Notes: generated by a model from the sequence alone, not told the origin. DNA of 64,000 nt from an uncultured Chloroflexia bacterium (GCA_963775225.1 CAVZHW010000002.1:211909-275908), one strand, 5' to 3'. Counted from the first letter of the stretch, positions 657-63,444 are shown. Numbers and translations: made by a program.

Positions 657-3158
657 TCAGTGAATGTGGTTCACCGTGCCGGCGACAATCGTGTACTGGA
701 GCGGCGTGGCGTCGCTGAACTTGAAATGCCACTTGCCCGGCAGCAGCTCGATGTCCTGCGTGAAGGTATGCCACGACGTCAGCGAGTACTGCGTCGCGTT
801 GCCGCTGTCGGAGTGCACGGCACCGGTCTGGAAGACCACCGGTGTTGAAACGTCCTGGGTGATCTCCACGGAGCTGTAGTTGTACGTCATCCTGAACTTG
901 TAGCTGCCCGGGAACAGCGCGAAGGTCACGTTGCCGGAGCCATCGGTCGTGCCAACCGGGATCCACGATCCACCGCCCTGCTCGACCACTCCCCCCGAGA
1001 GGCCAGCGCCACTGTGGTCGAGCAGGCTTACGGTCGCGTCGACAGTCGCAAAGGTGAAGATCGAGTGAGTCGGCTGGCTGTCGGTCTGCGTCGCCGAGCC
1101 GTTGTGGTAGTCCACGCGGACCTTGATGCTGCCCAGCGCACCGTCGACCAGCAGATATGCCCGGCCAGTGCCATCGGTAGTGCCGAACGGCAGCCATGAG
1201 CCGCCCGGCGCGTAGTCGATCACGCCACCGGACAGCCCACTGGCAGATGCATCGTCCAGGTGGACGATGACCATGCTCTTGGTGTAGGTCTCGCCCGCGC
1301 CCCACGTGAGCGGTAGCACGTAACCACCATCGGCCGGATCGCGGAAGTGGAAGTTGTAGGTGCCGGCGAGCAGATTCATCGTGGGCTGGGTGAACCAGGC
1401 TGAGTCGCCAGAGCCGCCACCGTACGAGAGCGAGCCGCTGTAGTACAGCGTGACCGTGGCCGTGTTCCAGGTCAGGGTCGTGTCCGCATCTGGGATATCG
1501 ACACTGACTTTAGTCTCAGCGGTGCCCTGGTACTCCATCTCGAACGAGTACGTGCCGGGGAACACTTCGGCAGAACTGGTGCCGTCGACGCCGGTCAGGC
1601 CACCCGGGAACCACCAGCTCGTGTAGGTCGAACCAATGCCGTAGCGCGCGTTCCCGCCGGCCAATGGATCACCACCGGCCGTCTCGAGCGCGAGCGTCAA
1701 CTTCCGCGTCTGGAACTGATAGACGGAGTTCACGCCGGCGTCCTGGGTCACCATCTGGGTCGTCCCGTTGAGCTTCATTTCGTTGGTCACGGTCCCCACG
1801 AGACCCGGCAGATCGTAGGCGAGGATCCCGGGCGCCGATGCCTCATCGCCGGTCGAGCCCGGAGCGAACTGCCAGCTGCCGGCCTGATAGCGTGCCGTCC
1901 CCCCATCGATCGGCACGCCACCACTGTCGACCAGGCGCAGGGCGATGAGGCTGCGCGTGTAGGTCGCACCAGGGCCGGCAGCGACCGGCCAGCCGAGCCC
2001 GATCCGGCCCGATGCCCCACCAGTCCCGTCAAGCCGGAAGCGGACCGGGGTGACACCGTCAGAGAAGAGCTCCATCGAGGGCTTGGAGAACGAGGCTGCA
2101 TCGCCGTTGGGCCCGCCAAAAGCAAGCGGTGCTCTGTACTGCAGCGTGACCCTGGTGGTGTAGAAGTTGAAGGTGGTGTCGGAGGTGACGTGCTCCGTCA
2201 CTTGCTGGCTGAGCGTGTGGTCCTTGCCCACCCAGACCGTTACATCGCCGGCCGGCACCGTGCTTTCTCGACAACCGCTGGCGCCGACCGGCCCCACATA
2301 GTGGCTCGAGCCCTCAGCCCACCAGGCCTGGTCACTGTCCAGCACGATGGGAGCGCCGGTGCTGTCGTACGCGCAGACGGTGATCGTCGGGTCCGTCGGG
2401 GTGCTCCAGGTCCCGGAGCTGGCGGACGCGCCGAGACTCGCGCTCGAACTGAACCAGGCTCCCGACGCGGTGACGGGACCCGGATCCCCGGCCGGCAGCA
2501 GGTTGCCCACCAGCGGGATCCGCAACACGACCTGGCCGACCACGCGCACGTCGTTGGCGCTGAAGTCGTCGCCCACGCTGTTGGCGTCGCCCTTGGTCAC
2601 GAAGGATCCATCGGAGTTGACCGTCGCGACCCGGTGCGTGACGACCGAGTTGTCCACTTCCATCGTCAGGATCATGCCCGGCTCGATCTGATCGGGCGGC
2701 CGGGTGATGACGACCAGGTCGCCGGCGCTGATGGTGGGCGTCATGCTCGCCCCCTTGACCACCAGCACGTGGTACCAGCGGTTGTTGATCAGCCCGTAGG
2801 CCACGAAGACCGCGAACACGACCGCCGCGACCAGGGCGGCGTCAAAGGCAAGGCCGACAATTCGCCTGACCAGGCGCAGTGCCCGGCGGCGTCGTGTCAG
2901 TGGCAGTGGGCGTGGTGCGACAGCCTCGACGGCCGCCTGGCCGCGGACGGGACCGTCTACCTCCGCTGAGCGTTCGGCCGCCGACGCGTCGTCCGGGTTG
3001 GCCGGCGGCTCAGGATCGCTGAGGTGCTGCAGCCGGAAACCGAGTGAGAAGAAGGTTGCCATGACGGTCACGCCGAAGATGAGGCCCGCGGCCTGGCCGA
3101 CAAGGCTCGATCCTCGTCGTGCCAAGCTGGGTTTCAACTTCGACTCCGTTGCCGCCAC
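657..3158 (-). CDS. SipW-like type I signal peptidase (S26, Ser/His type) fused to a C-terminal repeat (beta-sandwich-like) ectodomain of about 600 aa
   Basis: This is the ORF 657..3332, trimmed to GTG at 3158, which is preceded by AGGAGA and a 6-nt spacer. The upstream 58 codons overlap the TasA-like gene in another frame. One TM segment (GLIFGVTVMATFFSLGF) and a second hydrophobic stretch are present. S26 motifs seen: VVKGASMTPTISAGDLVVI, VVTHRV, TKGDAN. After the peptidase core there are repeated modules of the type LxDxxGxGLSGGxxxxxxGSWxPxGTTDGxGxxxxxLxPGxYxFxMxY. Confidence 0.8.
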   Translation of the reverse strand: MAATESKLKPSLARRGSSLVGQAAGLIFGVTVMATFFSLGFRLQHLSDPEPPANPDDASAAERSAEVDGPVRGQAAVEAVAPRPLPLTRRRRALRLVRRIVGLAFDAALVAAVVFAVFVAYGLINNRWYHVLVVKGASMTPTISAGDLVVITRPPDQIEPGMILTMEVDNSVVTHRVATVNSDGSFVTKGDANSVGDDFSANDVRVVGQVVLRIPLVGNLLPAGDPGPVTASGAWFSSSASLGASASSGTWSTPTDPTITVCAYDSTGAPIVLDSDQAWWAEGSSHYVGPVGASGCRESTVPAGDVTVWVGKDHTLSQQVTEHVTSDTTFNFYTTRVTLQYRAPLAFGGPNGDAASFSKPSMELFSDGVTPVRFRLDGTGGASGRIGLGWPVAAGPGATYTRSLIALRLVDSGGVPIDGGTARYQAGSWQFAPGSTGDEASAPGILAYDLPGLVGTVTNEMKLNGTTQMVTQDAGVNSVYQFQTRKLTLALETAGGDPLAGGNARYGIGSTYTSWWFPGGLTGVDGTSSAEVFPGTYSFEMEYQGTAETKVSVDIPDADTTLTWNTATVTLYYSGSLSYGGGSGDSAWFTQPTMNLLAGTYNFHFRDPADGGYVLPLTWGAGETYTKSMVIVHLDDASASGLSGGVIDYAPGGSWLPFGTTDGTGRAYLLVDGALGSIKVRVDYHNGSATQTDSQPTHSIFTFATVDATVSLLDHSGAGLSGGVVEQGGGSWIPVGTTDGSGNVTFALFPGSYKFRMTYNYSSVEITQDVSTPVVFQTGAVHSDSGNATQYSLTSWHTFTQDIELLPGKWHFKFSDATPLQYTIVAGTVNHIH

Positions 3159-3240
3159 TGCATGTCTCCTTGAGAGGGAAGACGAATCAAGAGGCTGAGG
3201 ACGGGTGGGCACGCCGTCCTCAGCCGAGGGTACTTGGCTC

Positions 3241-3813
3241 TTACCAGCCCGGGTTCTCGACCTGTGTCGCGTCGACGTGCAGGTTGAAATTGGCGGTCTG
3301 GTTCTCGTAAGCGTTGGTGGTATTCGAGGCAAGCTCGAAGTACACGTTGTAGCAGGCGGTGTAGTTGATCGGCAGGCCGCCGGCGAACGGACCGGGATTC
3401 TGGGTGTTGGTGAAGCTCAGGCTCGTGAGGGCGGCTTCCTGGATCGAGGGGGTGATCTCAGAACCACCGCAGTAGATCTGGTTCACGCGCACCCTGATCT
3501 TGTTGTAGAAGCCGGTCTGGCTCTCCGAGACGAACTCGTCGGTGACGCGGTACTTGACCGGCACCGTCGAGAGTGCGGTGTTGTAAACCTCGAACTCGTA
3601 CGGGCCGGACCAGACGCCGGGCATCAGGTTACTGACGGTGAAGCTGGTGGGATGCGCCTGGACGTCGATGTTGCCGGACGTGGCGGTGACGGCCACGTGA
3701 TCGGAATCACTGAACCACGCGGCGCTGCCGACGGTACCGAAGGCCATGACCGCGAGCATCGCCAGGGCAAAGGCGGCTACCAAGGTTTTTCGCACAGTTA
3801 CTGTCTCCTTCAT
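3241..3813 (-). CDS. TasA/camelysin-like (M73-like) secreted subunit with a SipW-cognate-type signal peptide, paralog 1
   Basis: This is the ORF 3241..3984, trimmed to ATG at 3813 with a GGGGGGAA Shine-Dalgarno-like tract upstream. The N-terminus is MKETVTVRKTLVAAFALAMLAVMAFGTVGSAAWFSDSD..., a hydrophobic signal ending in the AxF(S/T)D-type motif typical of TasA/camelysin family proteins. It is about 55-60% identical by eye to the ORF at 5159..5725. Confidence 0.8.
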   Translation of the reverse strand: MKETVTVRKTLVAAFALAMLAVMAFGTVGSAAWFSDSDHVAVTATSGNIDVQAHPTSFTVSNLMPGVWSGPYEFEVYNTALSTVPVKYRVTDEFVSESQTGFYNKIRVRVNQIYCGGSEITPSIQEAALTSLSFTNTQNPGPFAGGLPINYTACYNVYFELASNTTNAYENQTANFNLHVDATQVENPGW

Positions 3814-4241
3814 TTCCCCCCGCCGGTGACGGCGGCAGACTGCGAAATACGTGTTTGCGCAGTTGCGCGGAGACGATGGTCCAACGCGCAGCGTCCGGAC
3901 GTCATAGCCCACGAGTCCCATGGGGGGCCCAGGCGATAGTCCCAATTCGTGCGTACTGCCCGCCTTGGCCTCGCCCTTGGGCATCTGTCAGCGGCGCGGG
4001 ACTAGTGCGTTGGTACGTGGCAGCCCAAACGGTCAGCGGGGCGACCGTTCCCAGTCGTCGTGGTTGCGGCGATGAGGTGGGGCTGGGCGACGGTTCACGC
4101 TCGCGAGCAGGCTGCGCCTCGGTCGGCGCCGGTGCGGCGTTGGGGTCGGTGTCGACATGGACGTCGAAGTCGGCAGGACCCGCAGGTGAAGCACCTTGGT
4201 CCTGCTGTCCGGGCCGGCCGCTCCGCCGTGCGTCAGAGACG

Positions 4242-6114: not shown

Positions 6115-9816
<3,702 letters not shown>

Positions 9817-9823
9817 CACCACC

Positions 9824-10015
9824 TTGGCAGCCTGACCCGCACCGTACCCGGCAGCCTGCGGCACCCCTACCCGGCAGCCTGACCGCACCCCTACCCGGCA
9901 GCCTGACCGCACCCCTACCCGGCAGCCTGACCCCACCCCGTCCCCGGCAGCCTGCCGCACCCCTACCCGGCAGCCTGGCGCACCCCGTCCCCGGCAGCCT
10001 GACTCCGATCTCCCC
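9824..10015. repeat. Tandem repeat, about 24-bp unit (CCGGCAGCCTGACCGCACCCCTAC), about 8 copies
   Basis: Direct reading of 9824-10015, immediately downstream of the metH stop codon. Copies diverge by a few substitutions or 1-nt indels. Confidence 0.9.
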
Positions 10016-10045
10016 CGACCGCCGTCACCTCCCCCAAAGAGACGG

Positions 10046-10164
10046 TTGATGCGCGCAGGGGATCGCAAACAGGCAATTCCCTGCATGAACCCTGCCTGAA
10101 TCGGTCGATTCGCGGCCACATCACTCAGGGAATCGGCGGCAGGCGATGCTCCACGCGCATCATG
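10046..10164 (+). repeat. Rod-hairpin intergenic repeat element, copy 1
   Basis: TTGATGCGCGCAGGGGATCGC...AATTCCCTGCA...GAATCGGTCGATTC...TCAGGGAATCGGCGGCAGGCGATGCTCCACGCGCATCATGA. The termini TGATGCGCG and CGCGCATCA are perfect inverted repeats. Nested complementary blocks are GGGGATCGC/GCGATGCTCC and AATTCCCTG/CAGGGAATC. The element sits inside a block of about 180 bp (10018..10200) that is duplicated at 10448..10628. Confidence 0.85.
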
Positions 10165-10222
10165 ACCGGGCAGAGCGGTCGCCAGTGAGGGCCAGGCGGG
10201 GAGGTCGGCCAGGAGGGCCGGC

Positions 10223-10421
10223 GGGAGATCGCCAGCCAGTCGGGTAGGTCGCCACGCGGGAGATCGCCAGCCAGTCGGGTAGGTCGCCACGCGGGAGATC
10301 GCCAGCCCAGTCGGGTAGGTCGCCACGCGGGAGATCGCCAGCCAGTCGGGTAGGTCGCCACGCGGGAGATCGCCAGCCCAGTCGGGTAGGTCGCCACGCG
10401 GGAGATCGCCAGCCAGTCGGG
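10223..10421. repeat. Tandem repeat, 35/36-bp unit (GGGAGATCGCCAGCCAGTCGGGTAGGTCGCCACGC), about 5.5 copies
   Basis: Direct reading. It lies between hairpin-element copies 1 and 2. Confidence 0.9.
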
Positions 10422-10474
10422 ATCGGCAGCGCTGGGCAGCGCCCCGACCGCCATCACCTCTCCCAAAGAGACGG

Positions 10475-10593
10475 TTGATGCGCGCAGAGGATCGCAAACA
10501 GGCAATTCCCTGCATGAACCCTGCCTGAATCGGTCGAATCGCGGCCACATCACTCAGGGAATCGGCGGCAGGCGATGCTCCACGCGCATCATG
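10475..10593 (+). repeat. Rod-hairpin intergenic repeat element, copy 2
   Basis: Near-identical to copy 1, with 2-3 substitutions over the whole 180-bp block. It is offset from copy 1 by 429 bp. Confidence 0.85.
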
Positions 10594-10691
10594 ACCGGGC
10601 AGAGCGGTCGCCAGTGAGGGCCAGGCGGGAAGGTCGGCGGTGAGGGCGAGGCGGGTGGTCGGCACGTGGGAGATCGGCAGACGGGAGGGCG

Positions 10692-10780
10692 GCGGAGATC
10701 GGGGTCAGAGGGGAAGATCGGCGGAGATCGGGGTCAGAGGGGAAGATCGGGCGAGATCGGGGCCAGGCGGGAGATCGGCA
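10692..10780. repeat. Tandem repeat, about 29-bp unit (GCGGAGATCGGGGTCAGAGGGGAAGATCG), about 3 copies
   Basis: Direct reading. It abuts the left end of the IS21-family element. Confidence 0.8.
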
Positions 10781-10899
10781 AGCGGGGTTTCTGTCGACGC
10801 CGGGTGAAAACTGAGCACTTCTCGCCGGTCGAAAACTGAGCACCCTTTCGGTTCGACTGGCACCCTCGACCACGACGAGCTCGTGTCGAGGAGGAAGGA

Positions 10900-12126
10900 G
10901 TGCATCACGTGGAGGACTGGGCCGAGGTCCATCGGCTCTTCGATCGGGAGGGCCGCCCGAAGGCGGCGATCGCCCGCCAGCTGGCGATGAGCCGGAACAC
11001 CGTCGATCGGCTGCTGGGCCTGACGGAGCCGCCGCGCTACAGCCGCCCGCCGCGAGGCTCGCAGCTCGACCCGTTCGAAGGCCCGATCACGGCGCTCCTG
11101 GTGGCCGATCCGACGGTCCCCGCCACGGTCATCTGCGAGCGTCTCCGGGCGGCCGGTTATCGGGGCGGGCTGACGATCCTCAAAGACCACCTCGCGCGGG
11201 TCCGGCCGGGGTTCCTCGCTGCCCGCGCCTTCCAGCGCACGTCGTATCGGCCGGGTGAGATCGGCCAGGTCGACTGGTGGCACACGGGCGCGCTGGTGCC
11301 GGTCGGCCGGGGCCGAAGCCGACCGGCCTTCGGCCTCGTCGCGACGCTGCCCCACTCGGGTGCCCACGCCGCGACGTTCAGCTTCACGATGACCGTCGGC
11401 GACGTGCGACCGGGGCTCGTCAGCTGCCTCGCCCGGCTCGGCGGCGTGCCCGAGGCGCTGGTCTTCGACAACGACGCCTCGATCGTCGCCTCGCGCTCCG
11501 GCGGCCGTGCCCGGCTGCACGACGAGGTCGCCGGTCTGCTCGGTGCGCTGCGCACCAAGGCGATCGTCCTGCGCCCGCGGCGACCGACCTCGAAGGCCCA
11601 GGTCGAGCGGACGATCGGTTATCTCGAGACGAGCTTCCTGCCGGCCCGCTCGTTCGACTCGCTCGACGACCTCCAGGACCAGCACGACAGCTGGGCGACC
11701 AACGTCGCGGCGCGGCGCACCCTCCGTCGGACCGGGGCCCGGGTCGGCGACCGCTGGGCGGTGGAGCGCCAGTTCCTGCGCCCGCTGCCGGATCCGCTGC
11801 CCGACACCGACCTCCACCTCGAGACCCGCGTCGGCCGCGATGCGTTCGTCCGGGCGGCCGGCGTCGATTACTCGGTCCCGCCAGCGTTCGTCGGGCGGCG
11901 GGTCGCGATCCGGGTCTCGCCGGTCGCCATCCGAGTGAGCTGCGAGGGCGCCGAGATCGCCCGTCATGAGCGGAGCTTCGTCCCGGCTGATGTCGTCCAG
12001 GCGCCAGCCCACGGCCGAGCGCTCCGGCTCGCCCGGGAGGCGCGCGACCAGCTGGCCGCCGGCGACGTCGAGCTGCCCGAGATCGATCTCGCCCGCTATG
12101 ACGCGCTCGTCGGCGCAAGCTCATGA
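10900..12126 (+). CDS. istA: IS21-family transposase IstA
   Basis: GTG start preceded by GAGGAAGGAG. N-terminal HTH: AIARQLAMSRNTVDRLL. Integrase-core-like region: YRPGEIGQVDWWH...LVFDNDASIV. The stop overlaps the istB start. Confidence 0.9.
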   Translation: MHHVEDWAEVHRLFDREGRPKAAIARQLAMSRNTVDRLLGLTEPPRYSRPPRGSQLDPFEGPITALLVADPTVPATVICERLRAAGYRGGLTILKDHLARVRPGFLAARAFQRTSYRPGEIGQVDWWHTGALVPVGRGRSRPAFGLVATLPHSGAHAATFSFTMTVGDVRPGLVSCLARLGGVPEALVFDNDASIVASRSGGRARLHDEVAGLLGALRTKAIVLRPRRPTSKAQVERTIGYLETSFLPARSFDSLDDLQDQHDSWATNVAARRTLRRTGARVGDRWAVERQFLRPLPDPLPDTDLHLETRVGRDAFVRAAGVDYSVPPAFVGRRVAIRVSPVAIRVSCEGAEIARHERSFVPADVVQAPAHGRALRLAREARDQLAAGDVELPEIDLARYDALVGASS

Positions 12127-12890
12127 GCACGGCCGCAGCCGAGCTCGCCTTCCTGTCGGCCGCCCTCAAAGCGCCCCGGATCAAGGCCGTCAGCGGGCGG
12201 CTCGCCAGCCGGGCTCGCGACGAGGGCTGGGATTACGAGGCGTATCTTGCCGCGGTTCTCACCGAAGAGGTCAACGCGCGTGACAGCCACGGCGGGGCGG
12301 CCCGGGTCAAGGCCGCCCGGTTCCCGGCGACAAAGACGCTCGACGACTTCGACTTCAGCGTCCAGACGTCGGTCAGCCGGACGACGATCGCCCATCTTGC
12401 CCAGCTCGACTTCCTGGCCGAGGCGCACAACGTCGTCTTCCTCGGCCCACCTGGAACGGGCAAGACGCATCTGTCGATTGCGCTCGGCGTCCAGGCTGCC
12501 CGGCGCGGCCAGCGGGTCGCTTTCGCGACCGCCCATCAGTGGGTCAACCGGCTCGGTGCGGCCAAGCGTGCCGGACGACTTGACGACGAGCTCGAGCGGC
12601 TCGGCCGGATCCCGCTGCTGATCGTCGACGAGGTCGGCTACATCCCGTTCGACCCCGAGGCCGCGGCGCTCTTCTTCGCCCTGATCAGCTCGCGCTATGA
12701 GCGGCGTTCGCTCATCGTGTCGAGCAACAAGACATTCAGCGCCTGGGCTGAGATCTTCGGCGACCCGGTCGCCGTGGCGGCGATGGTCGACCGCCTCGTC
12801 CACCACGCCGAAGTGATCGTTCTCAAGGGCGAGAGCTACCGCCTGCGGGGCAAGCGGGAGGAGGTGCTGACCGGCGAGAAGAAGCGCTGA
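12123..12890 (+). CDS. istB: IS21-family helper ATPase IstB
   Basis: Walker A is GPPGTGKTH and Walker B is LLIVDEVGY. The typical IstB tail is RLVHHAEVIVLKGESYRLRG. The start overlaps the istA stop by 4 nt (ATGA). Confidence 0.92.
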   Translation: MSTAAAELAFLSAALKAPRIKAVSGRLASRARDEGWDYEAYLAAVLTEEVNARDSHGGAARVKAARFPATKTLDDFDFSVQTSVSRTTIAHLAQLDFLAEAHNVVFLGPPGTGKTHLSIALGVQAARRGQRVAFATAHQWVNRLGAAKRAGRLDDELERLGRIPLLIVDEVGYIPFDPEAAALFFALISSRYERRSLIVSSNKTFSAWAEIFGDPVAVAAMVDRLVHHAEVIVLKGESYRLRGKREEVLTGEKKR

Positions 12891-13016
12891 CCTGCTCAGT
12901 TTTCAACCGGCGATTTCTGCTCAGGTTTGGACCGGCGTTGACAGGTTTCGGGCGGTCTGGAGACTGCGGCATGCGGAAATAAGTGAGAGATAAGTGGCCG
13001 GCGCTATGAATCGGGC

Positions 13017-13937
13017 ATGTCGGTGTCTGGTCGGGCGCTGCGAATCGACGTTGCGCGGACGATGCGGGACGTCCGGCTTGCGCTGGGCTGGTCCCAGAGA
13101 GAGTTGGCGAGGCGGGCGGATGTCACGCAGTCGACGGTCTGCCGCATCGAGCGCGCAACATTGGCCGCGCTGACGTTTGATACCGCGGCGCTGATCCTCG
13201 ATGTGCTTGGAGTGCGGGCATCGCTCGAACTTCGTGCGCCGTTCATCGCCGATCGGGGACGGCAGCGCGATGCCGGTCACTCGCGCTGCGTGGCCTACGT
13301 CGCTCGGCGTCTGCGCCGATTGGGCTGGACCGTGGTGACCGAAGTCGAGATCGCGACCGGTTCCAGCCGCGGGTGGATCGATGTGCTCGCCTATCGGCCG
13401 AGCGACGGCCTGCTGCTGATCATCGAAGTCAAGACCGACCTGACCGATATCGGCATGCTCCAGCGTCAGGTGTCCTGGTACGAGCGCGGCGCATGGGACG
13501 CCGCGCGTCGCGAGGGATGGCGGCCGCGGCGGGCGATCAGCGCGGTCCTGGTTCTGGCCACGGAACGCGCGCTCGAGCGGATCGGCGACAACCGCGAGCT
13601 GCTGCGGCAGGCGTTTCCGGCGAGCGCTCGGGAGCTGGGCCTGACTGTGGCACGTGACGGCGGTGCGCCTTCTGGCGGGGGTGTCCCTTCTGGCGGGGGT
13701 GTCCCTTCTGGCGGGGGTGTCCCTTCTGGCGGGGGTGTCCCTTCTGGCGGGGGTGTCCCTTCTGGCGGGGGTGTCCCTTCTGGCGGGGGTGTCCCTTCAG
13801 GGCGGCGGGCAATGGCGATGATCGACCCGTACAACCGCTCTCGGCGGTGGTTGCTGGCTACGCCGCTGGCCGGTCGGGTCACTGCAGCCCCCTACGCGGA
13901 TTACGCCGATCTCATGCGGAGAATCCGGGCGGGTTGA
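13017..13937 (+). CDS. XRE-family HTH protein with a PD-(D/E)xK nuclease-like C-terminal domain and an internal heptapeptide repeat
   Basis: HTH: LALGWSQRELARRADVTQSTVCRIERA. Later motifs are GWIDVLAY ... LLLIIEVKT, a D...ExK pattern of restriction-endonuclease-fold proteins. There are 7 copies of GGVPSGG, from a 21-bp tandem repeat. Confidence 0.6.
   Translation: MSVSGRALRIDVARTMRDVRLALGWSQRELARRADVTQSTVCRIERATLAALTFDTAALILDVLGVRASLELRAPFIADRGRQRDAGHSRCVAYVARRLRRLGWTVVTEVEIATGSSRGWIDVLAYRPSDGLLLIIEVKTDLTDIGMLQRQVSWYERGAWDAARREGWRPRRAISAVLVLATERALERIGDNRELLRQAFPASARELGLTVARDGGAPSGGGVPSGGGVPSGGGVPSGGGVPSGGGVPSGGGVPSGGGVPSGRRAMAMIDPYNRSRRWLLATPLAGRVTAAPYADYADLMRRIRAG
13663..13805 (+). repeat. 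In-frame 21-bp tandem repeat (GGTGTCCCTTCTGGCGGGGGT), about 7 copies, inside the CDS 13017..13937
   Basis: Direct reading. Copies 2-7 are essentially identical, which implies recent expansion. It encodes (GGVPSGG)n. Confidence 0.9.
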
Positions 13938-13947
13938 GAGGCGGGGG

Positions 13948-14049
13948 GCGATGCGGGTGGCGATGCGGGCCGTCCGGGCGATGCGGGTGGCGATGCAGGT
14001 GGTGCGGGCGGCGATGCGCGCGATGCGGGTGGCGCGGGCGATGCGGGTG
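13948..14049. repeat. Degenerate 12-nt tandem repeat, (GCGATGCGGGTG)n
   Basis: Direct reading. It starts 11 nt after the stop codon of 13017..13937. Confidence 0.85.
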
Positions 14050-14158
14050 GCGCATCAGGAGCGACCGAATCCTTGGGTAAACCCGGTCCGAATGGTTGCC
14101 TTGTGACCGACTTTCCTGGGGGATTCGACCGAAGGCGATGCTTCACACGCATCAAGCG
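14050..14158 (+). repeat. Rod-hairpin intergenic repeat element, copy 3 (divergent subtype)
   Basis: GCGCATCAGGAGCGACCGAATCCTTGGG...CCTGGGGGATTCGACCGAAGGCGATGCTTCACACGCATCAAGCG. The right half (GGGGATTCGACCGAAGGCGATGCTTCACACGCATCA) aligns with the right half of copy 1 (AGGGAATCGGCGGCAGGCGATGCTCCACGCGCATCA). There is an internal inverted repeat, CGACCGAATCC / GGATTCGACCG. Confidence 0.75.
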
Positions 14159-14178
14159 TCCCAACCGAGCCGGGTCGA

Positions 14179-14333
14179 GGTGCGGGCGGCAATGCGGGCC
14201 GTCCGGGCGATGCGGGTGGCGATGCGGGCGATGCGGGTGGCGATGCAGGTGGTGCGGGTGGCGATGCGGGTGGTGCGAGTGGCGATGCGGGTGGCGATGC
14301 GGGCGATGCAGGTGGCGATGCGCGATGCGGGTG
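14179..14333. repeat. Degenerate 12-nt tandem repeat, (GCGATGCGGGTG)n, second block
   Basis: Direct reading. Same unit as 13948..14049. Confidence 0.85.
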
Positions 14334-14440
14334 GCGCATCAGGAGCGACCGAATCCTTGGGCAAACCCGTTCCGAATGGCCGCTTGCGACCGACTTTCCT
14401 GGGGGATTCGACCGAAGGCGATGCTTCACACGCATCAGGC
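14334..14440 (+). repeat. Rod-hairpin intergenic repeat element, copy 4 (divergent subtype)
   Basis: About 90% identical to copy 3. It is offset from copy 3 by 284 bp. Confidence 0.75.
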
Positions 14441-14584: not shown

Positions 14585-17119
14585 TTGGCGCCGCTCGTGG
14601 GAGTGGCACTCATCTGGCTCGTCGCGGCGCAACCGGCAGGCGCGGCGCAACCGGCCGCCGGTGCGCCAGCGCCAGCAACGGCTCAGACCGCCTCGGCTCC
14701 GCCTGCGCAGGTGCTCGTGCACTGGGGCGGCTCGCTCGCAGCCAGCCTATCCGTGGTGGCACAGACCGACCGATTGCAGGCGGCGGCGGGTCCATCGCTG
14801 CAGTACATACGCCGGACGGCGTCGGGTGCCCAGGTTTACCGACTGCCGGATGGAGCCAACCAGGCGGACGTGATGGCCCAGCTGCGGACAGTGCCAGGCG
14901 TCGCGTCGGTCGAGCCGGACATCTGGATGGCGCCGGTATCGGCGCCGGTATCGGCGCCGGCATCGGCGACGCCATTGACGCCGCCTACCAACGACACGTA
15001 TGCGGCGAGCATGTGGGGCCTGATGGGGCCGGCGCAGGGCAGTCGTTACGGCATCGACGCGGTCGATGCCTGGCCGCTGACCACCGGCCAGGGAGTCGCC
15101 GTCGCGGTGATCGACACCGGCCTGCTCTTCGACCACCCCGACCTCGCCGGACAGTCGCTGCCGGGCTACGACCTGATCACCGACTACGGACAGGGCCACA
15201 CGGCCGATGTCGCGGGTGACGGCAATGGACGCGACTCGGATGCCAGCGACCCCGGCGACTGGCCGCGCAAGAGTGACGGCTGCGGGGCGGACGTCTCGTC
15301 GTGGCACGGCACTCACGTGGCCGGCACGATTGCCGCCGTTGCCAACAACTCTCTCGGCGTGTTCGGTGGTGCTCCGGGCGTGAAGGTGCAGCCAGTGCGC
15401 GTGCTCGGCCACTGCGGCGGCTACATGTCCGACGTGATCGACGGCATCTACTGGGCCGCGGGGTCCAGTCAGGTCGGCGACGGTAGCGGCGGCCTCCTGC
15501 CCGTCAACCAGTACGCCAATTGCGCCACCTCTGATCCCTGCGTGCGGGTGCTCAACCTGTCGCTCGGCGGCCCGGGCGGCACATGCGATGCGGACCTGGA
15601 GGCCGCTATCCAGTACGCGCTGGGGCAGAACAAGATGGTCGTGGCGGCGGCCGGCAACAATGACAACAACGTCAGGAACTTCTCGCCCGCCAACTGCACC
15701 GGCGTCTTCACCGTTGCCGCGACGAATTTTAACGGCCGCCGCGCGTCCTTCTCGAACTACGGCTCAGCGACGTACCCGCTGGTCGATATCGCGGCTCCCG
15801 GCGTCGGCATCCTGAGCACGCTGAACAGCGGCACGAAGGGGCCGTCGAGCACCTACAACGACACCGTCTGCTACTACTCGCGCTCGAGCGGCTGCAGCTA
15901 CGACTTCTACGACGGCACGTCGATGGCCACGCCGCACGTCTCGCTCAGCGCGGCGCTGGTCGCGGCCGAGAACCCGTCACTCGACGTGGATCAGATCGAG
16001 CAGATCCTGCTCTCGACCGCAACCCGGTTCCCGTACTCGAGCGCCCGGCACTCCTGCTCGCGCAACGCCAACCTTTGTGGCGCAGGCATCGTGAACGCCG
16101 CGGCCGCGGTGGCCGCGGCGATGCCGCCGGCGACCGTGCCCGGCCCGCCAACGGGCGTCGCCGCTTCGGCCGGCCTGGGTGCCATCGCGGTGAGCTGGCA
16201 GCCGTCCGCCGATGACGGCGGCCGCGAGATCACCGGCTACGAAGCCACCGTGACACGCCAGGCCGACAACTCGACCTACACGTGCTCGACCCTTGGGACT
16301 CTGTCATGCACAGTCGGCAGCCTGGCCAACGGCAACTACATGGTCACCGTGCAGGCCCAGAACGCCATCGGCTACGGCGCTTTATCCGACCTCGTCGGCC
16401 CGATCAGCGTGCCGGCGGTCAGCCCGGCCGACACCGACCCGCCGACCGCCTTTGCGCCGACCCTCGCGATTGCGGGCGACCAACCGACCTCCGGTTCGAT
16501 CGCGGTCCACGTCGGCTGGCCCGCGGCGACAGACACCGGCGGGCCGATCGACAGCTACGAGCTGCAGGCGCGGCTCGATGGTGGCGCGTGGTCGACGGTC
16601 GATCTCGGCAGCCCCGCTGCGACCAGCACGGACCTCAGCGTGCGACCCGGCCAGACGGTCGACCTGCGCATCGCGGCGCGCGACATGGCCGGCAACTGGA
16701 GCGGCTGGGCACACCTCGCAAGCAGCCCTGCCAAGATCAATCTCATCCAGGAGAAACCCACCGCGCACGTCGTCTACAGCGGTCGCTTCCGCAAGTTCAG
16801 CTTCAGCGGCGCGTCGGGCGGCCACGTGCGCGCCGCCGGCCACGCCGGCCGCAAGGTGACGTTCACCTTCACCGGCTCGAGCGTCGCCTTCGTCAGCACC
16901 CTTTCACCGACGCGCGGCATCGCCACCGTCCGGCTCGACGGCGGCGCGCCGCAGACCATTGACCTGTACCACGCGGGCGGCTATGAGATGGCGCAGGTGG
17001 CCTGGTCGTCGGGTCCGCTGAGCGCCGGACCGCACACGCTCGTGGTCACCGTGACCGGCACCAGGAACGCTGCTTCGAGCAGGAACCGGGTCGACATCGA
17101 CGCCTTCCTGACCCTCTGA
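14585..17119 (+). CDS. Secreted subtilisin-like serine protease (S8) with fibronectin-III-like and C-terminal accessory domains
   Basis: Catalytic triad motifs: VAVIDTGLLFDHPDL (Asp), HGTHVAGTIAA (His), GTSMATPHVS (Ser). The N-terminal hydrophobic signal starts at TTG 14585, and this start is uncertain. Propeptide-like block: VYRLPDG...VASVEPD. Two Fn3-like segments are present: PGPPTGVAASAG...ITGYEATV and DTDPPTAF...IDSYELQ. Confidence 0.85.
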   Translation: MAPLVGVALIWLVAAQPAGAAQPAAGAPAPATAQTASAPPAQVLVHWGGSLAASLSVVAQTDRLQAAAGPSLQYIRRTASGAQVYRLPDGANQADVMAQLRTVPGVASVEPDIWMAPVSAPVSAPASATPLTPPTNDTYAASMWGLMGPAQGSRYGIDAVDAWPLTTGQGVAVAVIDTGLLFDHPDLAGQSLPGYDLITDYGQGHTADVAGDGNGRDSDASDPGDWPRKSDGCGADVSSWHGTHVAGTIAAVANNSLGVFGGAPGVKVQPVRVLGHCGGYMSDVIDGIYWAAGSSQVGDGSGGLLPVNQYANCATSDPCVRVLNLSLGGPGGTCDADLEAAIQYALGQNKMVVAAAGNNDNNVRNFSPANCTGVFTVAATNFNGRRASFSNYGSATYPLVDIAAPGVGILSTLNSGTKGPSSTYNDTVCYYSRSSGCSYDFYDGTSMATPHVSLSAALVAAENPSLDVDQIEQILLSTATRFPYSSARHSCSRNANLCGAGIVNAAAAVAAAMPPATVPGPPTGVAASAGLGAIAVSWQPSADDGGREITGYEATVTRQADNSTYTCSTLGTLSCTVGSLANGNYMVTVQAQNAIGYGALSDLVGPISVPAVSPADTDPPTAFAPTLAIAGDQPTSGSIAVHVGWPAATDTGGPIDSYELQARLDGGAWSTVDLGSPAATSTDLSVRPGQTVDLRIAARDMAGNWSGWAHLASSPAKINLIQEKPTAHVVYSGRFRKFSFSGASGGHVRAAGHAGRKVTFTFTGSSVAFVSTLSPTRGIATVRLDGGAPQTIDLYHAGGYEMAQVAWSSGPLSAGPHTLVVTVTGTRNAASSRNRVDIDAFLTL

Positions 17120-35412: not shown

Positions 35413-36293
35413 GCGCCGCCGCTCGCTTTTGCCTGGCCAGCCCGTCCTCGCGCCAGATACCCCAGCACGATCTCCTCCAGGTTTGCGGGCCTCCCGGCCC
35501 CGCCTGCCCCAGCCCGTATCAGCCACTCCGGTTGTCCCGGCAGTTGGGCGACAGCCGTTTCGGCGACGGACGAGTCGGCGACGACCCTGTGCTCCTGTGT
35601 CGCCGCAGCGGTACTGGTGCTGAGCAAAACGCGACCGACGCCGAGAACAATCAGGTGGTCGCTTGCTTGCTCGACATCGCGGACTATGTGCGACGAGAGC
35701 AGCGCCGTCAGACCACGCTCGTCGACCGCGCGCTGAAGAAGCTCGAGCACTTCGTGGCGCGCCAGCGGATCCAAGCTCGCGAGAGGTTCGTCCAGGACCA
35801 GTATTTCGGCCCCGCTTGCCAGCGCGATCGACAGCACGACTTGCGCCGCCTGCCCGCCGGACACCCTGCCCAGCCGCGCATCGAGTGGGATACTCAGCCG
35901 GTCGACATAGTCAATTGCGCCGGCCACGTCGAGAGTCGGCCGCAGGTACGCCGCGTAGTCGATGTTCTGGGCGACAGTTAGTTCCCGGTACAGCTCTGGG
36001 CGCTGCGGGACATACGCGATCTTCGCCAATGCTTGCACGGCCGAGCGAACGGGATCGATCCCGGCGACTGACACCTGGCCGGCCGTCGGTCGCTCGAAGC
36101 CTATCCACGTCTTGATGAGCGTCGATTTCCCGGCCGCGTTTGGCCCGACGAGTGCCGTGATCCCACCGCGTGGGACATCTACGGACACGTCGCGCAATGC
36201 CCACGTCGAGCGCCCGTAACGCTTCGAGACGTCGCCGGCGTGGAGCGCCACGTGTCGGGCGGAGGGAGGGGCTTGGTCTGTGGTCGGGGTCAA
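35409..36293 (-). CDS. ABC transporter ATP-binding protein, paralog 1
   Basis: Walker A is GPNAAGKST, the signature-like motif is VSGGQAAQV, and Walker B is ILVLDEPLASLD. The H-loop is LLSSH. Confidence 0.88.
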   Translation of the reverse strand: MTPTTDQAPPSARHVALHAGDVSKRYGRSTWALRDVSVDVPRGGITALVGPNAAGKSTLIKTWIGFERPTAGQVSVAGIDPVRSAVQALAKIAYVPQRPELYRELTVAQNIDYAAYLRPTLDVAGAIDYVDRLSIPLDARLGRVSGGQAAQVVLSIALASGAEILVLDEPLASLDPLARHEVLELLQRAVDERGLTALLSSHIVRDVEQASDHLIVLGVGRVLLSTSTAAATQEHRVVADSSVAETAVAQLPGQPEWLIRAGAGGAGRPANLEEIVLGYLARGRAGQAKASGGA

Positions 36294-38104: not shown

Positions 38105-39009
38105 CAGGCAGCTAGCTCCGCCGCGGCGGCGGCGGCTCGGCTCGCCGCGAGGTAGCCAAGGACGATGTCCTCGAGCGTCGCGGGCGACGCGCCGCCGACT
38201 TTGTCTCGATTGAGCCGCCAAAGCTGGATGAGCGCCCGCTCCGCGCTTTCGAACCCGCCCACGAGCGTCGCGTCGTCGGGAATGGCCGCGTCAAGGCTGG
38301 TAACGACATGTCGCTCGAGCGCGTCGGCGATGGTCGTGTCGAGAAGCTTGCGCCCGTTGCCGAGCACCACCAGGTGATCGCACGCCTGCTCTATGTCTGT
38401 GACTACGTGCGAAGACAGCAACGCGGTTGATCCGTCGGCGCGTACCGCGTCGACAAGAACATGCAAGAACTCGCGCCGAGCGAGCGGATCGAGACTCGCG
38501 AGTGGCTCATCCAAGAGCAGGATGCGAGCACGCGTCGCGAGTGCGAGGGCAAGTCCAACCTGCGCCCGTTGACCGCCGGAGAGCTGGCTGGCCGGCTGGT
38601 CGAGCGGCACGCCGAGTTCGTGTAGCCGCTGCTCAGCGTACGGACGGTCGAATTGACGTCGAAGACTCTGCGCGAGGGCGAGGTGGTCGGCTACCGTCAG
38701 GCCGCCGTAGAGCGCCGGCGACTGTGGGACATACCCCAGGAGCCGGATGGCGCGTCCCGGATCCGCCCACGGGTCGACTCCGCCGACTTCAACATGGCCG
38801 GCGCTGGGCGGCTCCAGCCCGACCCAAGCCTTGATGAGGGTCGACTTACCGGCGCCGTTTGGGCCGACCAGTGCCGTAAGGCCAGGCTCACCGATTGTGA
38901 TGTCCAGCTGGCGCAACGCAGGGTGCCGTCCATACCTCTTGACGAGCCCTTGCGCGACCAAGGCTGGAGTCGGGGTTTCAGCGATAGGCGCGCGTGACGG
39001 TTCGACCAC
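38104..39009 (-). CDS. ABC transporter ATP-binding protein, paralog 2
   Basis: Motifs seen: GPNGAGKST, LSGGQRAQV, ILLLDEPLASLD, LLSSH. Confidence 0.88.
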   Translation of the reverse strand: MVEPSRAPIAETPTPALVAQGLVKRYGRHPALRQLDITIGEPGLTALVGPNGAGKSTLIKAWVGLEPPSAGHVEVGGVDPWADPGRAIRLLGYVPQSPALYGGLTVADHLALAQSLRRQFDRPYAEQRLHELGVPLDQPASQLSGGQRAQVGLALALATRARILLLDEPLASLDPLARREFLHVLVDAVRADGSTALLSSHVVTDIEQACDHLVVLGNGRKLLDTTIADALERHVVTSLDAAIPDDATLVGGFESAERALIQLWRLNRDKVGGASPATLEDIVLGYLAASRAAAAAAELAA

Positions 39010-42669: not shown

Positions 42670-42745
42670 CGCCTGCGCACGTTGTTGGCGTCGCACGAGC
42701 CTGCCTGCCCGTCAGCGTGATGCCCTGCATGGGCCATAGCACGCC

Positions 42746-42880
42746 TGATGCGCAAAGCGGTTCAAGAGCGGCCGATTCCCTGCACAAACCTGGCTCACAG
42801 CGACCATTGCGCTGACTATCCCTGCACGAATTGCCGGTGCGCGATGCGCTGTGCGCATCAGGCGTGCGCGCATCAAGCGC
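42746..42880 (+). repeat. Rod-hairpin intergenic repeat element, copy 5
   Basis: TGATGCGCAAAGCGGTTCAAGAGCGGCCGATTCCCTGCACAAACCTGGCT...CCCTGCACGAATTGCCGGTGCGCGATGCGCTGTGCGCATCAGGCGTGCGCGCATCAAGCG. It shares the terminal TGATGCGC / GCGCATCA inverted repeats and the GATTCCCTGCA core with copies 1 and 2. Confidence 0.75.
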
Positions 42881-48699: not shown

Positions 48700-48817
48700 T
48701 CCCATTTGCGCCGAAAGCGACGCCTGGGCCTGGTTCGGGCGTTTCTACTGCGCGCCTGGTGCGCAAGTGGCACCAGCGAAAGCCGCCGACCAGCCGTGTC
48801 GTCCTCCTTTTCCCGCG

Positions 48818-48933
48818 TGATGCGCGCAGCGGTTCAACATTGGGCCATTCCTTGGACAAACCGGCCTCAAATCGGCGTTTTGAGAGCACTTTGCGCAGGG
48901 ATTTGCCCGACATCGATGCGGCACGCGCATCAA
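48818..48933 (+). repeat. Rod-hairpin intergenic repeat element, copy 6
   Basis: TGATGCGCGCAGCGGTTCAACATTGGGCCATTCCTTGGACAAACCGGCCTCAAATCGGCG...GCGCAGGGATTTGCCCGACATCGATGCGGCACGCGCATCAA. The terminal inverted repeats and overall layout match copies 1, 2, 5 and 7. Confidence 0.8.
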
Positions 48934-49060
48934 CCGTCGGTGGCGATGGTTCGGCGGGGCGTGGACAACGGCAACCGCGACAGCGACCGCAACTGCAACC
49001 GCGACCGCGCACCGTGATCGGCTTCAACTAAGCTCCGGGCACGAGCCAGGCGCCAACCGC

Positions 49061-50605: not shown

Positions 50606-51127
50606 CTAGGGTGCGCGCCGAACGCGCTCGACGCGCGCATCCGTGACGGCCTCGGGCGAGCGCAGCACGTACAGCGCGGCGTAGTTCTTCGCGGGCAGGG
50701 CTGCCAACGTGGCCGGCATCCGCGCGGCCTGGCGTGCCACCACGTCATCGTCGACCGTCCGCCCGTCGCGCAGCGAGTTGTGGCGCACGTAGGCCTCCGT
50801 AGGAAAGTCGAAGGCGATGGCGACGGCCGGCACGCCGTAGCGCTCGGCCATCCGGCGGAAGCGTGTGCGTGACGGGGCGTGCAGGTTCGTCGCATCGACC
50901 ACGGTCATCAGCCGTCGACCCAGCCTGGACTTGGCGATCAGTTCGACGACCTTGAAGGCGTCGGCCGACGCCGACTGGTCGGCCGGGTCATCGGCCACCA
51001 GCGCGCGAGCGAAGTCGCTCGAGACAATCTCGGTCGTGGAGAAATTGCGCGCGGCAAAGGTCGATTTGCCCGCGCCGGACGGCCCGACCAGGAGCACCAA
51101 CGCTGGATCGGGAATGGCCAGTTTCAC
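50606..51127 (-). CDS. Stand-alone P-loop kinase resembling the kinase module of bacterial polynucleotide kinase-phosphatase (Pnkp)
   Basis: The GTG start overlaps the vapC stop (GTGA). The sequence is MKLAIPDPALVLLVGPSGAGKSTFAARNFSTTEIVSSDFARALVADDPADQ...LMTVVDATN...AVAIAFDFP...YVLRSPEAV. From memory, this is colinear with the N-terminal kinase domain of Clostridium thermocellum Pnkp (LVVLIGSSGSGKSTFAKKHF..EVISSD..R....DDENDQ...VVDATN). There are no phosphatase or ligase domains. Confidence 0.6.
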   Translation of the reverse strand: MKLAIPDPALVLLVGPSGAGKSTFAARNFSTTEIVSSDFARALVADDPADQSASADAFKVVELIAKSRLGRRLMTVVDATNLHAPSRTRFRRMAERYGVPAVAIAFDFPTEAYVRHNSLRDGRTVDDDVVARQAARMPATLAALPAKNYAALYVLRSPEAVTDARVERVRRAP

Positions 51128-51501
51128 GCGCCCAGGACGGGCACCCCGTACTGCTCGAACCGCGTGTCGCGAGTGACGATTGTGAGACCTTCGATCGTGG
51201 CCTGGGCAATCAGCATGCGGTCGAACGGATCCCTGTGGTGGGGCGGGAGCGTCCCCGCCGCAAGGCTGTGCTGCTGAGTGATCGGGAGAGGCTCGAAACG
51301 GCTGGCCTCGATCGTCGCGACGAGGTCACCAGAGATTTGCAGGCGGCCGTTGGCCTGCTTGATCGCCAGCTCCCACACCGACGCCGCGCTTACGAACACC
51401 TCATTGGACGGGTCGCGGATCGCATCTCGGGCCTCCGCGCGCAGTTGCTCGGGGGCCTCGAGCGACCAGAGAAGGGCGTGGGAGTCGAGCAGGAGTCTCA
51501 C
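51124..51501 (-). CDS. vapC: PIN-domain toxin VapC
   Basis: MRLLLDSHALLW..., SAASVWELAIK, DPFDRMLIAQA, IVTRD: the acidic PIN residues are spaced as in VapC toxins. The GTG start overlaps the antitoxin stop (GTGA). Confidence 0.88.
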   Translation of the reverse strand: MRLLLDSHALLWSLEAPEQLRAEARDAIRDPSNEVFVSAASVWELAIKQANGRLQISGDLVATIEASRFEPLPITQQHSLAAGTLPPHHRDPFDRMLIAQATIEGLTIVTRDTRFEQYGVPVLGA

Positions 51502-51767
51502 TCGGCCGCTGACGTGCCCGGATCGTCCGGTAAGAGTTCACCCTCCTCGAAGTCCCGGATGATCTCGTCATCCACTTCGTCGAAATCGGGCGCGATCCAG
51601 ATCTTCCCCTTCAGGAGTCCGAGCGGGCGCGGCTCAGTCATGGGTTGGTACGCGACAAGTCTGGCGAGGGGCTTACCCGACCGGGCGATGACGACATCCT
51701 CGCCGGCAGCCGCTCGGTCCACCAGTCGCGACAGATGAGTCTTGGCCTCGTGGATGTTGACCTTCAT
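51498..51767 (-). CDS. Phd/YefM-type antitoxin
   Basis: MKVNIHEAKTHLSRLVDRAAAGEDVVIARSGKPLARLV is the typical Phd/YefM N-terminus. The ORF 51498..51785 was trimmed to ATG at 51767 (alternative GTG at 51785). Confidence 0.85.
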   Translation of the reverse strand: MKVNIHEAKTHLSRLVDRAAAGEDVVIARSGKPLARLVAYQPMTEPRPLGLLKGKIWIAPDFDEVDDEIIRDFEEGELLPDDPGTSAAE

Positions 51768-63060: not shown

Positions 63061-63189
63061 CCAAGCTGGTTCTGTCGCCAACATCTGGCGACACTCGTCG
63101 GGCCCCGGGGTTGCGCGCCCGGTGGGCCAAGTCGCGCAGGTAGCGCCCGGTCGATCGGCAGCGTCTAGGCCAGCCTGCGTGGCCGAGAC

Positions 63190-63305
63190 TTGATGCGCGC
63201 AGGGCATCGAGAAGCGTCGATTCCCCCGGCAATCCTGAGCGCAACCGCCAGTCCGGAGCGACTCTTGTGCGTGAATCGGCCGGCAGCGATGCTGTGCCCG
63301 CATCG
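63190..63305 (+). repeat. Rod-hairpin intergenic repeat element, copy 7
   Basis: TTGATGCGCGCAGGGCATCGAGAAGCGTCGATTCCCCCGGCAATCC...GAATCGGCCGGCAGCGATGCTGTGCCCGCATC. It has the same 5' end and the same GATTCCC...GAATCGGC..GCGATGCT layout. The 3' terminal repeat is degraded. Confidence 0.7.
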
Positions 63306-63444
63306 CTGCCCCGGCTAGCGTTCACGCACCCGCGCAGGCTGCTCGATATTTGACACAGACCTCTGTGAGCCATGCTCAGGGGAGGCGGTGCAGGGTATCC
63401 TGTGCCCGTGCGGGGACGAGCACCGCAGCTGCGAAGGAGACGAC

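Follow-up and report, generated by a model that had tools for sequence, protein, structure and literature searches.

Palindrome-ended intergenic repeats bracket a putative helix-turn-helix/PD-(D/E)xK nuclease gene in an uncultured Chloroflexia bacterium: a possible REPtron-like arrangement

In Proteobacteria, repetitive extragenic palindromes (REP) and their REPIN form are associated with the gene of a dedicated enzyme, RAYT (TnpA-REP), in an arrangement named 'REPtron' (PMC3116915, PMC3337134, PMC8266576, PMC3733652); the RAYT cleavage site is a GTAG (or CGTC) tetranucleotide located at one end of the palindrome (PMC3733652). TIRtrons are a further arrangement, in which tyrosine transposase genes (TIRYTs) are flanked by long terminal inverted repeats (IRs) and the repeat families are moderately abundant (PMC3733652). 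The REP/REPIN-RAYT association is the main known repeat population that is kept by a dedicated, vertically inherited nuclease, and it uses HUH single-strand chemistry. Here we describe a stretch of 64,000 nucleotides from an uncultured Chloroflexia bacterium (GCA_963775225.1, CAVZHW010000002.1:211909-275908; the window, meaning this whole stretch), in which a family of intergenic elements of ~120 bp accompanies a gene for a protein with a helix-turn-helix (HTH) domain and a nuclease-like domain (HTH-nuclease). The elements are best read as REPIN-built DNA repeats, made of two inverted REP-like palindromes, the 3' one strict and the 5' one degenerate, and the gene lying between element copies is best fitted by a REPtron-like cassette in which RAYT has been replaced by a restriction-like nuclease. 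That elements and gene together form a REPIN/REPtron-like system built on a non-HUH nuclease is a proposal whose chances we consider evenly balanced.

The window has a G+C content of 69%. A covariance model (R1) constructed from 17 element copies and run over the whole 64 kb without filters identified exactly seven copies, all on the plus strand, with scores of 82-112 bits and rough E-values of 1e-17 to 1e-24; no eighth element was found in the window, the runner-up match reaching 17 bits. An earlier note on this DNA had reported seven repeat copies sharing a single orientation, five of them just 3' of plus-strand genes, and all of this was borne out. The seven copies, which align over ~120 nt, are the following:

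UP-1, 10044..10164, plus strand: 3' of metH and upstream of the HTH-nuclease gene (R1 112.1 bits)
UP-2, 10473..10593, plus strand: tandem duplicate of UP-1, repeat family D7 (R1 112.0 bits)
DN-1, 14036..14156, plus strand: downstream of the HTH-nuclease gene (R1 92.2 bits)
DN-2, 14320..14439, plus strand: tandem duplicate of DN-1, with a unit of 284 nt (R1 100.2 bits)
Dispersed copy, 42743..42880 (core 42743-42862), plus strand: in a convergent spacer, 77 nt past the stop codon of an S8 peptidase gene (R1 111.4 bits)
Dispersed copy, 48815..48934, plus strand: in a divergent spacer between an M16 peptidase gene (minus strand) and an MFS transporter gene (plus strand) (R1 103.6 bits)
Dispersed copy, the most divergent, 63188..63307, plus strand: ~130 nt upstream of a putative Ku open reading frame (ORF) (R1 81.8 bits)

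The duplication that generated UP-2 has a unit of 429 nt (10013-10218 and 10442-10647 are 96% identical), and the two elements share 98% identity; DN-1 and DN-2 share 93%. Since the pairs listed in the earlier note at 10046/10475 and 14050/14334 are local tandem duplications, the window contains five independent sites, and identity among independent copies is only 53-72%. At each site the plus strand outscores the minus strand by 35-60 bits under R1; thus, the shared orientation is real, as is the polarity of the element. Allowing at most one mismatch, the 3' motif CGATGC-N6-CGCATC occurs 17 times in the window against 2.1 expected, always within elements, and in the 42743 copy the core is trailed by an additional reiterated 3' terminus, GCGCGCATCA.

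Each element consists of two imperfect inverted arms of ~35 nt and of a 46-nt centre between them. The 3' end is a REP-like 17-nt palindrome, GATGCGC-N3-GCGCATC, which in some copies has a stem of only 5-6 bp; the palindrome or this variant is found in every copy. The 5' end, TGATGCGCGCAG(S)GGNTC, is a degenerate inverted version of the same palindrome, and the inner complementary boxes are CCGATTCCCTG and CAGGGAATCGG, the second also written CAGGGAAT(C/T)GG. The perfect 9-nt terminal IR TGATGCGCG/CGCGCATCA described previously applies to the copies at 10046, 10475 and 48818, while the remaining ones carry variants. The central sequence is variable and drifts freely; the terminal motifs are invariant, also in copies located by synteny and not by pattern. 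Retrieval by pattern scans favours copies with intact termini; the same conservation is seen in the window copies and in the synteny-found ones, which are free of this bias.

In an alignment of 19 copies, 82% of the cells pair according to the model structure, versus 29-47% when the partners are slid; 9 of the 29 pairs are invariant and pairing is mostly carried by pairs that never vary. When the stem was tested by covariation, as the earlier note had proposed, compensatory changes were present but modest (0.150 versus 0.113 in shuffles, a value that 2 of 500 shuffles attained). Whole elements fold better than their dinucleotide shuffles (mean z -2.8), whereas the central 46 nt have no significant structure (mean z -0.2); thus, the 'rod' corresponds to two ~35-nt arms and an unconstrained centre, and the idea of one long stem holds for the arms and not for the middle of the element.

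These properties bear on the possibility that the elements are structured RNA modules, co-transcribed with the upstream gene and acting as 3' stabilisers, terminators or small RNAs, which was one of the options originally listed. The location of all seven window copies on the plus strand, the compensatory changes and the position of ~10 of 15 independent sites, sense and 18-230 nt past a co-oriented stop codon, would agree with this role. However, at three of the 15 sites the element is antisense to the genes on either side, and two sites lie in divergent 5' regions; as RNA, the minus strand folds better than the plus strand (sums of -1023 and -969 kcal/mol), and G-U pairs are barely in excess of A-C (38 versus 24, which is not decisive), with no strand-specific RNA signal. 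Moreover, the apical third is unstructured, neither a promoter or terminator consensus nor a U-tract was found inside the elements, and the Rfam search gave no family at gathering thresholds in the window, the single match up to E = 10 over 9700-10800 being a chance miRNA. As an account of what the elements are, an RNA module is therefore highly improbable; an additional REP-like RNA role is possible.

The spacer between metH and the S8/fn3 peptidase gene, 4.8 kb long in the window, contains, in order, a tandem array, UP-1, a second array, UP-2, a third array, an IS21-family insertion sequence (IS), the control region and the HTH-nuclease gene; past the gene, an array, DN-1, another array and DN-2 follow. 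Orthologous proteins, 65-71% identical to that of the window, are encoded in four other genomes (L024, L029, L031, L033), and elements are present on both sides of the gene, and on its strand, in five of the five orthologue-bearing genomes:

HTH-nuclease gene, 13017..13937, plus strand: HipB/XRE-type HTH fused to a predicted PD-(D/E)xK nuclease
Window: upstream elements 10044-10164 and 10473-10593; gene 13017-13937; downstream elements 14036-14156 and 14320-14439
L024: upstream element 8083-8203; gene 8295-9089; downstream element from ~9100, cut by the contig end
L029: upstream element 9823-9942; gene 10001-10819; downstream element 10814-10933
L031: upstream element 9805-9924; gene 10001-10804; downstream element 10813-10932
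L033: upstream elements 362-482 and 655-775; gene 845-1807; downstream element 1750-1869

In L024 and L031 the upstream copies have metH on one side and the HTH gene on the other; in L029 and L033 they immediately precede the HTH gene. Of the downstream copies, those of L024, L029 and L031 start no more than ~20 nt from the stop codon, and that of L033 overlaps the gene's 3' end as annotated. The upstream copies form one orthologous series and the downstream copies another, indicating that both have been retained since these genomes diverged (MetH identity ~81%), with their centres drifting. In relatives lacking the gene at this locus, the next gene starts 69-200 nt past metH and the spacer is element-free; in a neighbour-joining tree of MetH the cassette-bearing genomes are not monophyletic, which is weak evidence. 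The gene had initially been listed as a mere neighbour of the repeats: it indeed adjoins them, but as a constant partner bracketed at five of five loci.

Only the HTH domain of the protein is recognized by Pfam above threshold, and no Pfam model reaches threshold on the nuclease domain; the sub-threshold matches are limited to MmcB-like, NERD, MTES_1575 and YhcG, all of them PD-(D/E)xK families, which Pfam describes as domains of nucleases or of DNA repair. The AlphaFold model (pLDDT 86) predicts a helix-strand-strand-strand-helix-strand core with pLDDT >90, and Foldseek matches include the R2 retrotransposon endonuclease domain, AF1548 and HipB. In an alignment of 48 sequences a catalytic-type E..D..ExK motif is conserved in the nuclease domain, H88, E109, D122 and K139 being invariant and E137 at least 90% conserved. 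Taken together with the modelled fold, these features fit a member of the PD-(D/E)xK nuclease superfamily with a restriction-endonuclease-like core. Matches to known defence systems are weak and nearly all limited to the HTH domain; the HTH-nuclease is not a known defence protein. With clustering at 50% identity, the domain family counts 916 cluster representatives at E <= 1e-3 and, at E <= 1e-10, 272; nearly all members are 260-290 aa long with a common layout. Within the window gene, a perfect 18-nt tandem repeat of 7.3 copies (13668-13798) encodes (PSGGGV)n; this region corresponds to a linker, short in every homologue and modelled with low confidence, thus pointing to a genome-specific in-frame minisatellite expansion.

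The region preceding the gene is organised as follows:

Control region, 12945..13016, plus strand: ATAAGTG direct repeats, then GCTATGAATCGGGC directly before the ATG

The same organisation, ATAAG(T/C)G direct repeats and then, ~5-7 bases from the ATG, a TATGAAT-like box, was found in all eight homologues compared (window, L024, L025, L029, L031, L033, L034 and L035), which are 31-100% identical and include genes associated with other repeat families. Judging from the sequence, GCTATGAATCGGGC may be the -10 box of a leaderless mRNA and the whole region looks like an autoregulated promoter of such an mRNA. GAATCGG was also considered as an operator common to the elements and to the 5' region of the gene and was dropped, being in the latter part of the likely -10 box.

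Another reading is a purely regulatory role, in which the protein would be a transcription factor, the 17-bp palindromes its operators, the dispersed copies its regulon and the nuclease-like domain a sensor or dimerisation module. The HipB/XRE-type HTH domain, the dyad symmetry of the 17-bp motifs, which are of the kind bound by XRE dimers, the presence of copies flanking the protein's own gene and the variation of the palindromes between protein clades are all consistent with it. Conversely, a transcription factor would not account for the invariance of the catalytic residues of the E..D..ExK motif over the 48 diverged sequences, and most dispersed copies are found not at promoters but past stop codons or in convergent spacers; the HTH region and the upstream ATAAGYG repeats are conserved across clades while the palindromes are not, and a 120-bp element with paired arms far exceeds the needs of an operator. 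A regulon of this kind is unlikely.

Since for the linkage the five orthologous loci represent a single event, distant homologues of the gene located elsewhere were also examined. One of them (L034, 44% identity) lies between two-component and Tad genes; it is preceded by two 146-nt direct repeats, 97% identical to each other, and followed by an inverted copy and a half copy of the same repeat, three more tandem copies being present 3 kb away. This repeat comprises a hairpin element of ~125 nt, with termini GCATGCATCTCACTCATGAGATTC, plus flank; R1 gave no match to the L034 repeats, which are a separate sequence family. Another homologue (L035/L036, 40% identity), in a different genomic context, is accompanied by 18-nt palindromes, GAGCGAT-N4-ATCGCTC, two upstream and five downstream, with pairs ~83 nt apart. 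As a control, blastn was run between the 350-nt flanks of 894 pseudo-genes of 800 nt each, giving a 99th percentile of 30.1 bits; the flank-to-flank scores were 140 bits for L034, 45.5 for L029, 39.2 for the window and 31.9 for L035. The linkage between gene and repeats was thus seen in three independent gene contexts and protein clades, and not in a fourth, that of L025.

The distribution of the element family was analysed with a strict two-ended pattern against one genome per species and metagenomes. True copies outside the window were found only in two metagenome-assembled genomes (MAGs), labelled Chloroflexia and Anaerolineaceae, and in a few soil and freshwater contigs; by this pattern the two related MAGs contain 2 and 4 copies, compared with 5 independent sites in the 64 kb of the window. 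The family is confined to close relatives within uncultured Chloroflexota. The window MetH has an 89% identical counterpart in the 'Anaerolineaceae' MAG GCA_964610835.1 and 66-79% identical ones in organisms named Chloroflexota or Candidatus Limnocylindrales, which makes the host a member of the uncultured Chloroflexota that probably resembles Limnocylindria; no element was present in 82 kb of four somewhat more distant relatives (L025-L028, MetH 81-84% identity), and neither the element nor an HTH-nuclease homologue was found in viral contigs and plasmid collections. Pattern matches in Paraburkholderia and several metagenomes (L001, L011, L014-L018) were discarded as chance or unrelated. In L011 (513-642) two perfect palindromes, GGATGCGC-GCA-GCGCATCC and CGATGCGC-TGT-GCGCATCG, lie ~100 nt apart around an unrelated interior (R1 31 bits), and may represent a sister family with the same terminal palindrome.

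Several observations suggest that the elements have spread as DNA. The neighbours of the dispersed copies are unrelated housekeeping genes, and no RAYT or other transposase adjoins any dispersed copy among the neighbouring genes examined. Subfamilies are common to different genomes at non-orthologous sites, the 42743 copy being 82-85% identical to copies of a related MAG (L004 and L007) at such sites. Moreover, L031 has a copy (16282-16401) in the spacer between an M20 peptidase gene and a Mur ligase gene, and the orthologous spacer of L025 and L026 is 23-25 nt long and element-free. The inspection of insertion sites suggested in the earlier note hence gave an empty spacer in relatives, with no exact junction definable, and none of 18 copies showed a target-site duplication. 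Complementarity of the flanks prolongs the hairpin past the termini in ~6 of 17 copies, inconsistently; some copies may therefore have inserted into palindromes already in place, but not as a rule. GC skew was uninformative as a test of a replication-linked orientation bias. Among the options of the earlier note, a DNA repeat of the type of REPs or of miniature inverted-repeat transposable elements (MITEs) is the one supported, by terminal palindromes, inverted arms, dispersal, insertion polymorphism and shared subfamilies.

In its plainest form, the MITE explanation takes the element as derived by deletion from a DDE transposon that is itself unseen, with the transposase acting in trans, and the HTH-nuclease locus as a hot spot where insertions and tandem repeats are tolerated, the gene being a coincidental neighbour. 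Dispersal and the L031 polymorphism are expected from a MITE, the ~35-nt imperfect terminal IRs have TG...CA ends, and the metH-S8 spacer is unstable, hosting tandem arrays and the IS21 insertion. The lack of target-site duplication at 18 of 18 copies argues against it. As to a parent, the sole transposon of the window, IS21, has unrelated ends and the viral and plasmid collections yielded none, but the genome and metagenome scans required both ends no more than 100 nt apart and so would miss a full-length parent. Furthermore, the termini are invariant even in old resident copies that are 55-70% diverged, both sides of the gene hold whole elements and not half-ends, and two other clades of the gene family, in other contexts, have different palindromic repeats on both flanks. 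On balance, a plain MITE with a coincidental gene is distinctly unlikely.

The preferred reading is that of REPIN-built repeats with a REPtron-like nuclease cassette, for which a mechanism can be outlined. The HTH-nuclease would recognise the palindromes at the element's ends, whether these are duplex or are extruded as a hairpin or cruciform, and would nick there; nicking would seed the copying of the element and its dispersal to new intergenic sites, those tolerated being mostly just past stop codons, and selection would keep the termini of resident copies intact. Binding and cleavage of the elements by this protein, and their mobilisation, are inferred, and the system might be either selfish or domesticated.

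Some points weigh against this interpretation. The 64 kb in view leave room for a RAYT elsewhere in the genome. The ATAAGYG repeats, conserved in all the homologues, are a better candidate operator for the HTH domain than the clade-specific palindromes. The five bracketed loci share the same metH context and count as one evolutionary event for the linkage; independent support comes from two further contexts only, that of L035 being modest (31.9 bits), and the L025 homologue, 31% identical, has no flanking repeats. In addition, the orientation of the flanking copies differs, being direct in the window's family and inverted in L034, and neither a target duplication nor a precise empty site is definable.

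A broader hypothesis, which we advance tentatively and regard as rather doubtful, is that the REP-RAYT arrangement was invented a second time, independently, with HipB-HTH/PD-(D/E)xK nucleases each maintaining and spreading their own REPIN-like family, the gene lying between the copies. The nuclease family comprises 272 clusters (50% identity, E <= 1e-10), and such nuclease-repeat pairs would occur in Chloroflexota and probably in other uncultured soil and freshwater bacteria. A system parallel to REP-RAYT in structure, but based on a restriction-like nuclease, would mean that this way of persisting evolved more than once; it would also assign a function to an unannotated protein family and provide a nuclease that is specific for sequence or structure and whose target, a 17-bp palindrome or a hairpin, is defined.

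Other features of the locus include minisatellite-like arrays with periods of 9-35 nt, which cluster beside elements in the window (9826-10779, 13929-14336, 48966-49014) and in L024 (8043-8080, 8215-8262). Those of the metH-S8 spacer, detected with Tandem Repeats Finder, are listed with the IS:

9826..10003, no strand assigned: 24-nt tandem array, 7.5 copies, abutting UP-1
10221..10421, no strand assigned: 35-nt tandem array, 5.7 copies, 97% matches, between UP-1 and UP-2
10606..10779, no strand assigned: degenerate 26-nt and 29-nt arrays rich in GGAGATCGG, after UP-2 up to IS21
13929..14053, no strand assigned: 9/12-nt array, (GGCGATGCGGGT)n, reiterating the 5' terminus of DN-1
14204..14336, no strand assigned: second 9/12-nt (GGCGATGCGGGT)n array, before DN-2
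10792-12944: complete IS21-family element, with istA at ~10900-12126 and istB at 12123-12890

Some arrays repeat the element's own terminus (GCGATGCGGGT), and they may originate from slippage or replication stalling at the palindromes. The IS21 element has the upstream elements on one side and the HTH-nuclease gene's control region on the other; at the corresponding place L024 carries no insertion sequence. Its terminal IRs are imperfect, 52 nt long and contain repeated GAAAACTGAGCA motifs, and its target duplication is the 6-bp GGTTTC; because of these unrelated IRs and this duplication IS21 was rejected as a parent of the elements.

Many copies in short-read assemblies lie within a few hundred bases of contig ends:

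L004: copy at 3817-3936 of 4375
L006: copy at 139-258
L019: copy at 115-234
L023: copy at 78-197
L024: copy from 9107 to the contig end

It follows that the elements may break short-read assemblies of these lineages, and that copy numbers in MAGs may be underestimated. In two different MAGs an element is located just upstream of PyrK-like genes (DHODB Fe-S/FAD-binding) that are homologous to each other, its orientation with respect to the gene being opposite in the two:

L002: element 2842-2961, gene 3064-3969
L009: element 2395-2514, gene 1364-2440

These two copies are only 61% identical, and derive either from independent insertion or from local inversion.

Elsewhere in the window, paralogous segments with ~1.9 kb spacing (2449-2748/4306-4605 and 3467-3815/5397-5745, 72-81% identical) belong to a peptidase S24-like/M73-like gene cluster upstream of metH, which is also present in L024 and L029. 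Further paralogous gene segments, at 35452-36168, 38147-38887 and 53668-54396 (70-78% DNA identity; families D10-D12 and D18), are putative ABC-transporter ATPase genes. A PIN-domain (VapC-like) gene is located at 51127-51537 on the minus strand, and the ORF running from 63436 to the window end on the plus strand is a putative Ku start, as judged from its N-terminal sequence.

As for the comparison with known systems, integron attC sites, 57-141 nt long, are imperfect palindromes in which the ends are conserved and the centre varies, placed 3' of genes in one orientation, and the elements share all these traits. However, their ends, GTTGATGC...GCATCAAC, are opposite to RYYYAAC...GTTRRRY; attC sites were rejected on account of the reversed core motifs, the lack of an integrase among the window proteins scanned and of a cassette array, and the scattering of the copies among housekeeping genes. 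Palindrome-associated elements (PATE), derived from IS200/IS605, have subterminal hairpins at both ends, a TnpA(Y1)/TnpB parent and a fixed 4-5-nt 5' target; the present elements have a hairpin at each end and a 5' flank that is often ..GTT or ..CGT but not fixed, and no Y1 or TnpB gene was present among the window and locus proteins scanned. ERIC/IRU and Correia MITEs are intergenic imperfect palindromes of 100-150 bp with terminal IRs, often co-transcribed, with TA or similar target duplications, and DDE transposases are thought to act on them in trans. The elements described here resemble them as intergenic imperfect palindromes with terminal IRs, and differ in having no target duplication, no parent seen and a specific gene that they bracket. 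The likeness to TIRtrons lies in a gene flanked by long, partly palindromic repeats that also form a modest dispersed family; in TIRtrons, however, the enzyme is of Y1/HUH type, whereas here each side of the gene holds whole hairpin elements and not single inverted ends.

The closest counterpart is the REPtron, from which the locus departs in several respects. Instead of an HUH/Y1 transposase, the gene encodes an HTH and a predicted PD-(D/E)xK nuclease; the host belongs to an uncultured lineage of Chloroflexota; the copies seen so far are few, in the tens versus hundreds; and in the window's family the flanking copies have direct orientation. The palindromes also lack the RAYT tag: in 18 copies neither GTAG/CTAC nor a conserved CGTC/GACG was found at or beside either terminus, and no Y1_Tnp match was obtained among the window and locus proteins scanned; since both tag and enzyme were looked for and not found, the system is not a member of the REP-RAYT family. 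What it shares with REPtrons is the architecture: short palindromic units, ~20-40 nt long in REP systems, paired in inverted orientation into a hairpin of ~100-120 nt, an intergenic location mostly just downstream of genes, the bracketing of one dedicated nuclease gene by the repeats, differing repeat families in different gene clades and a long retention at orthologous sites.

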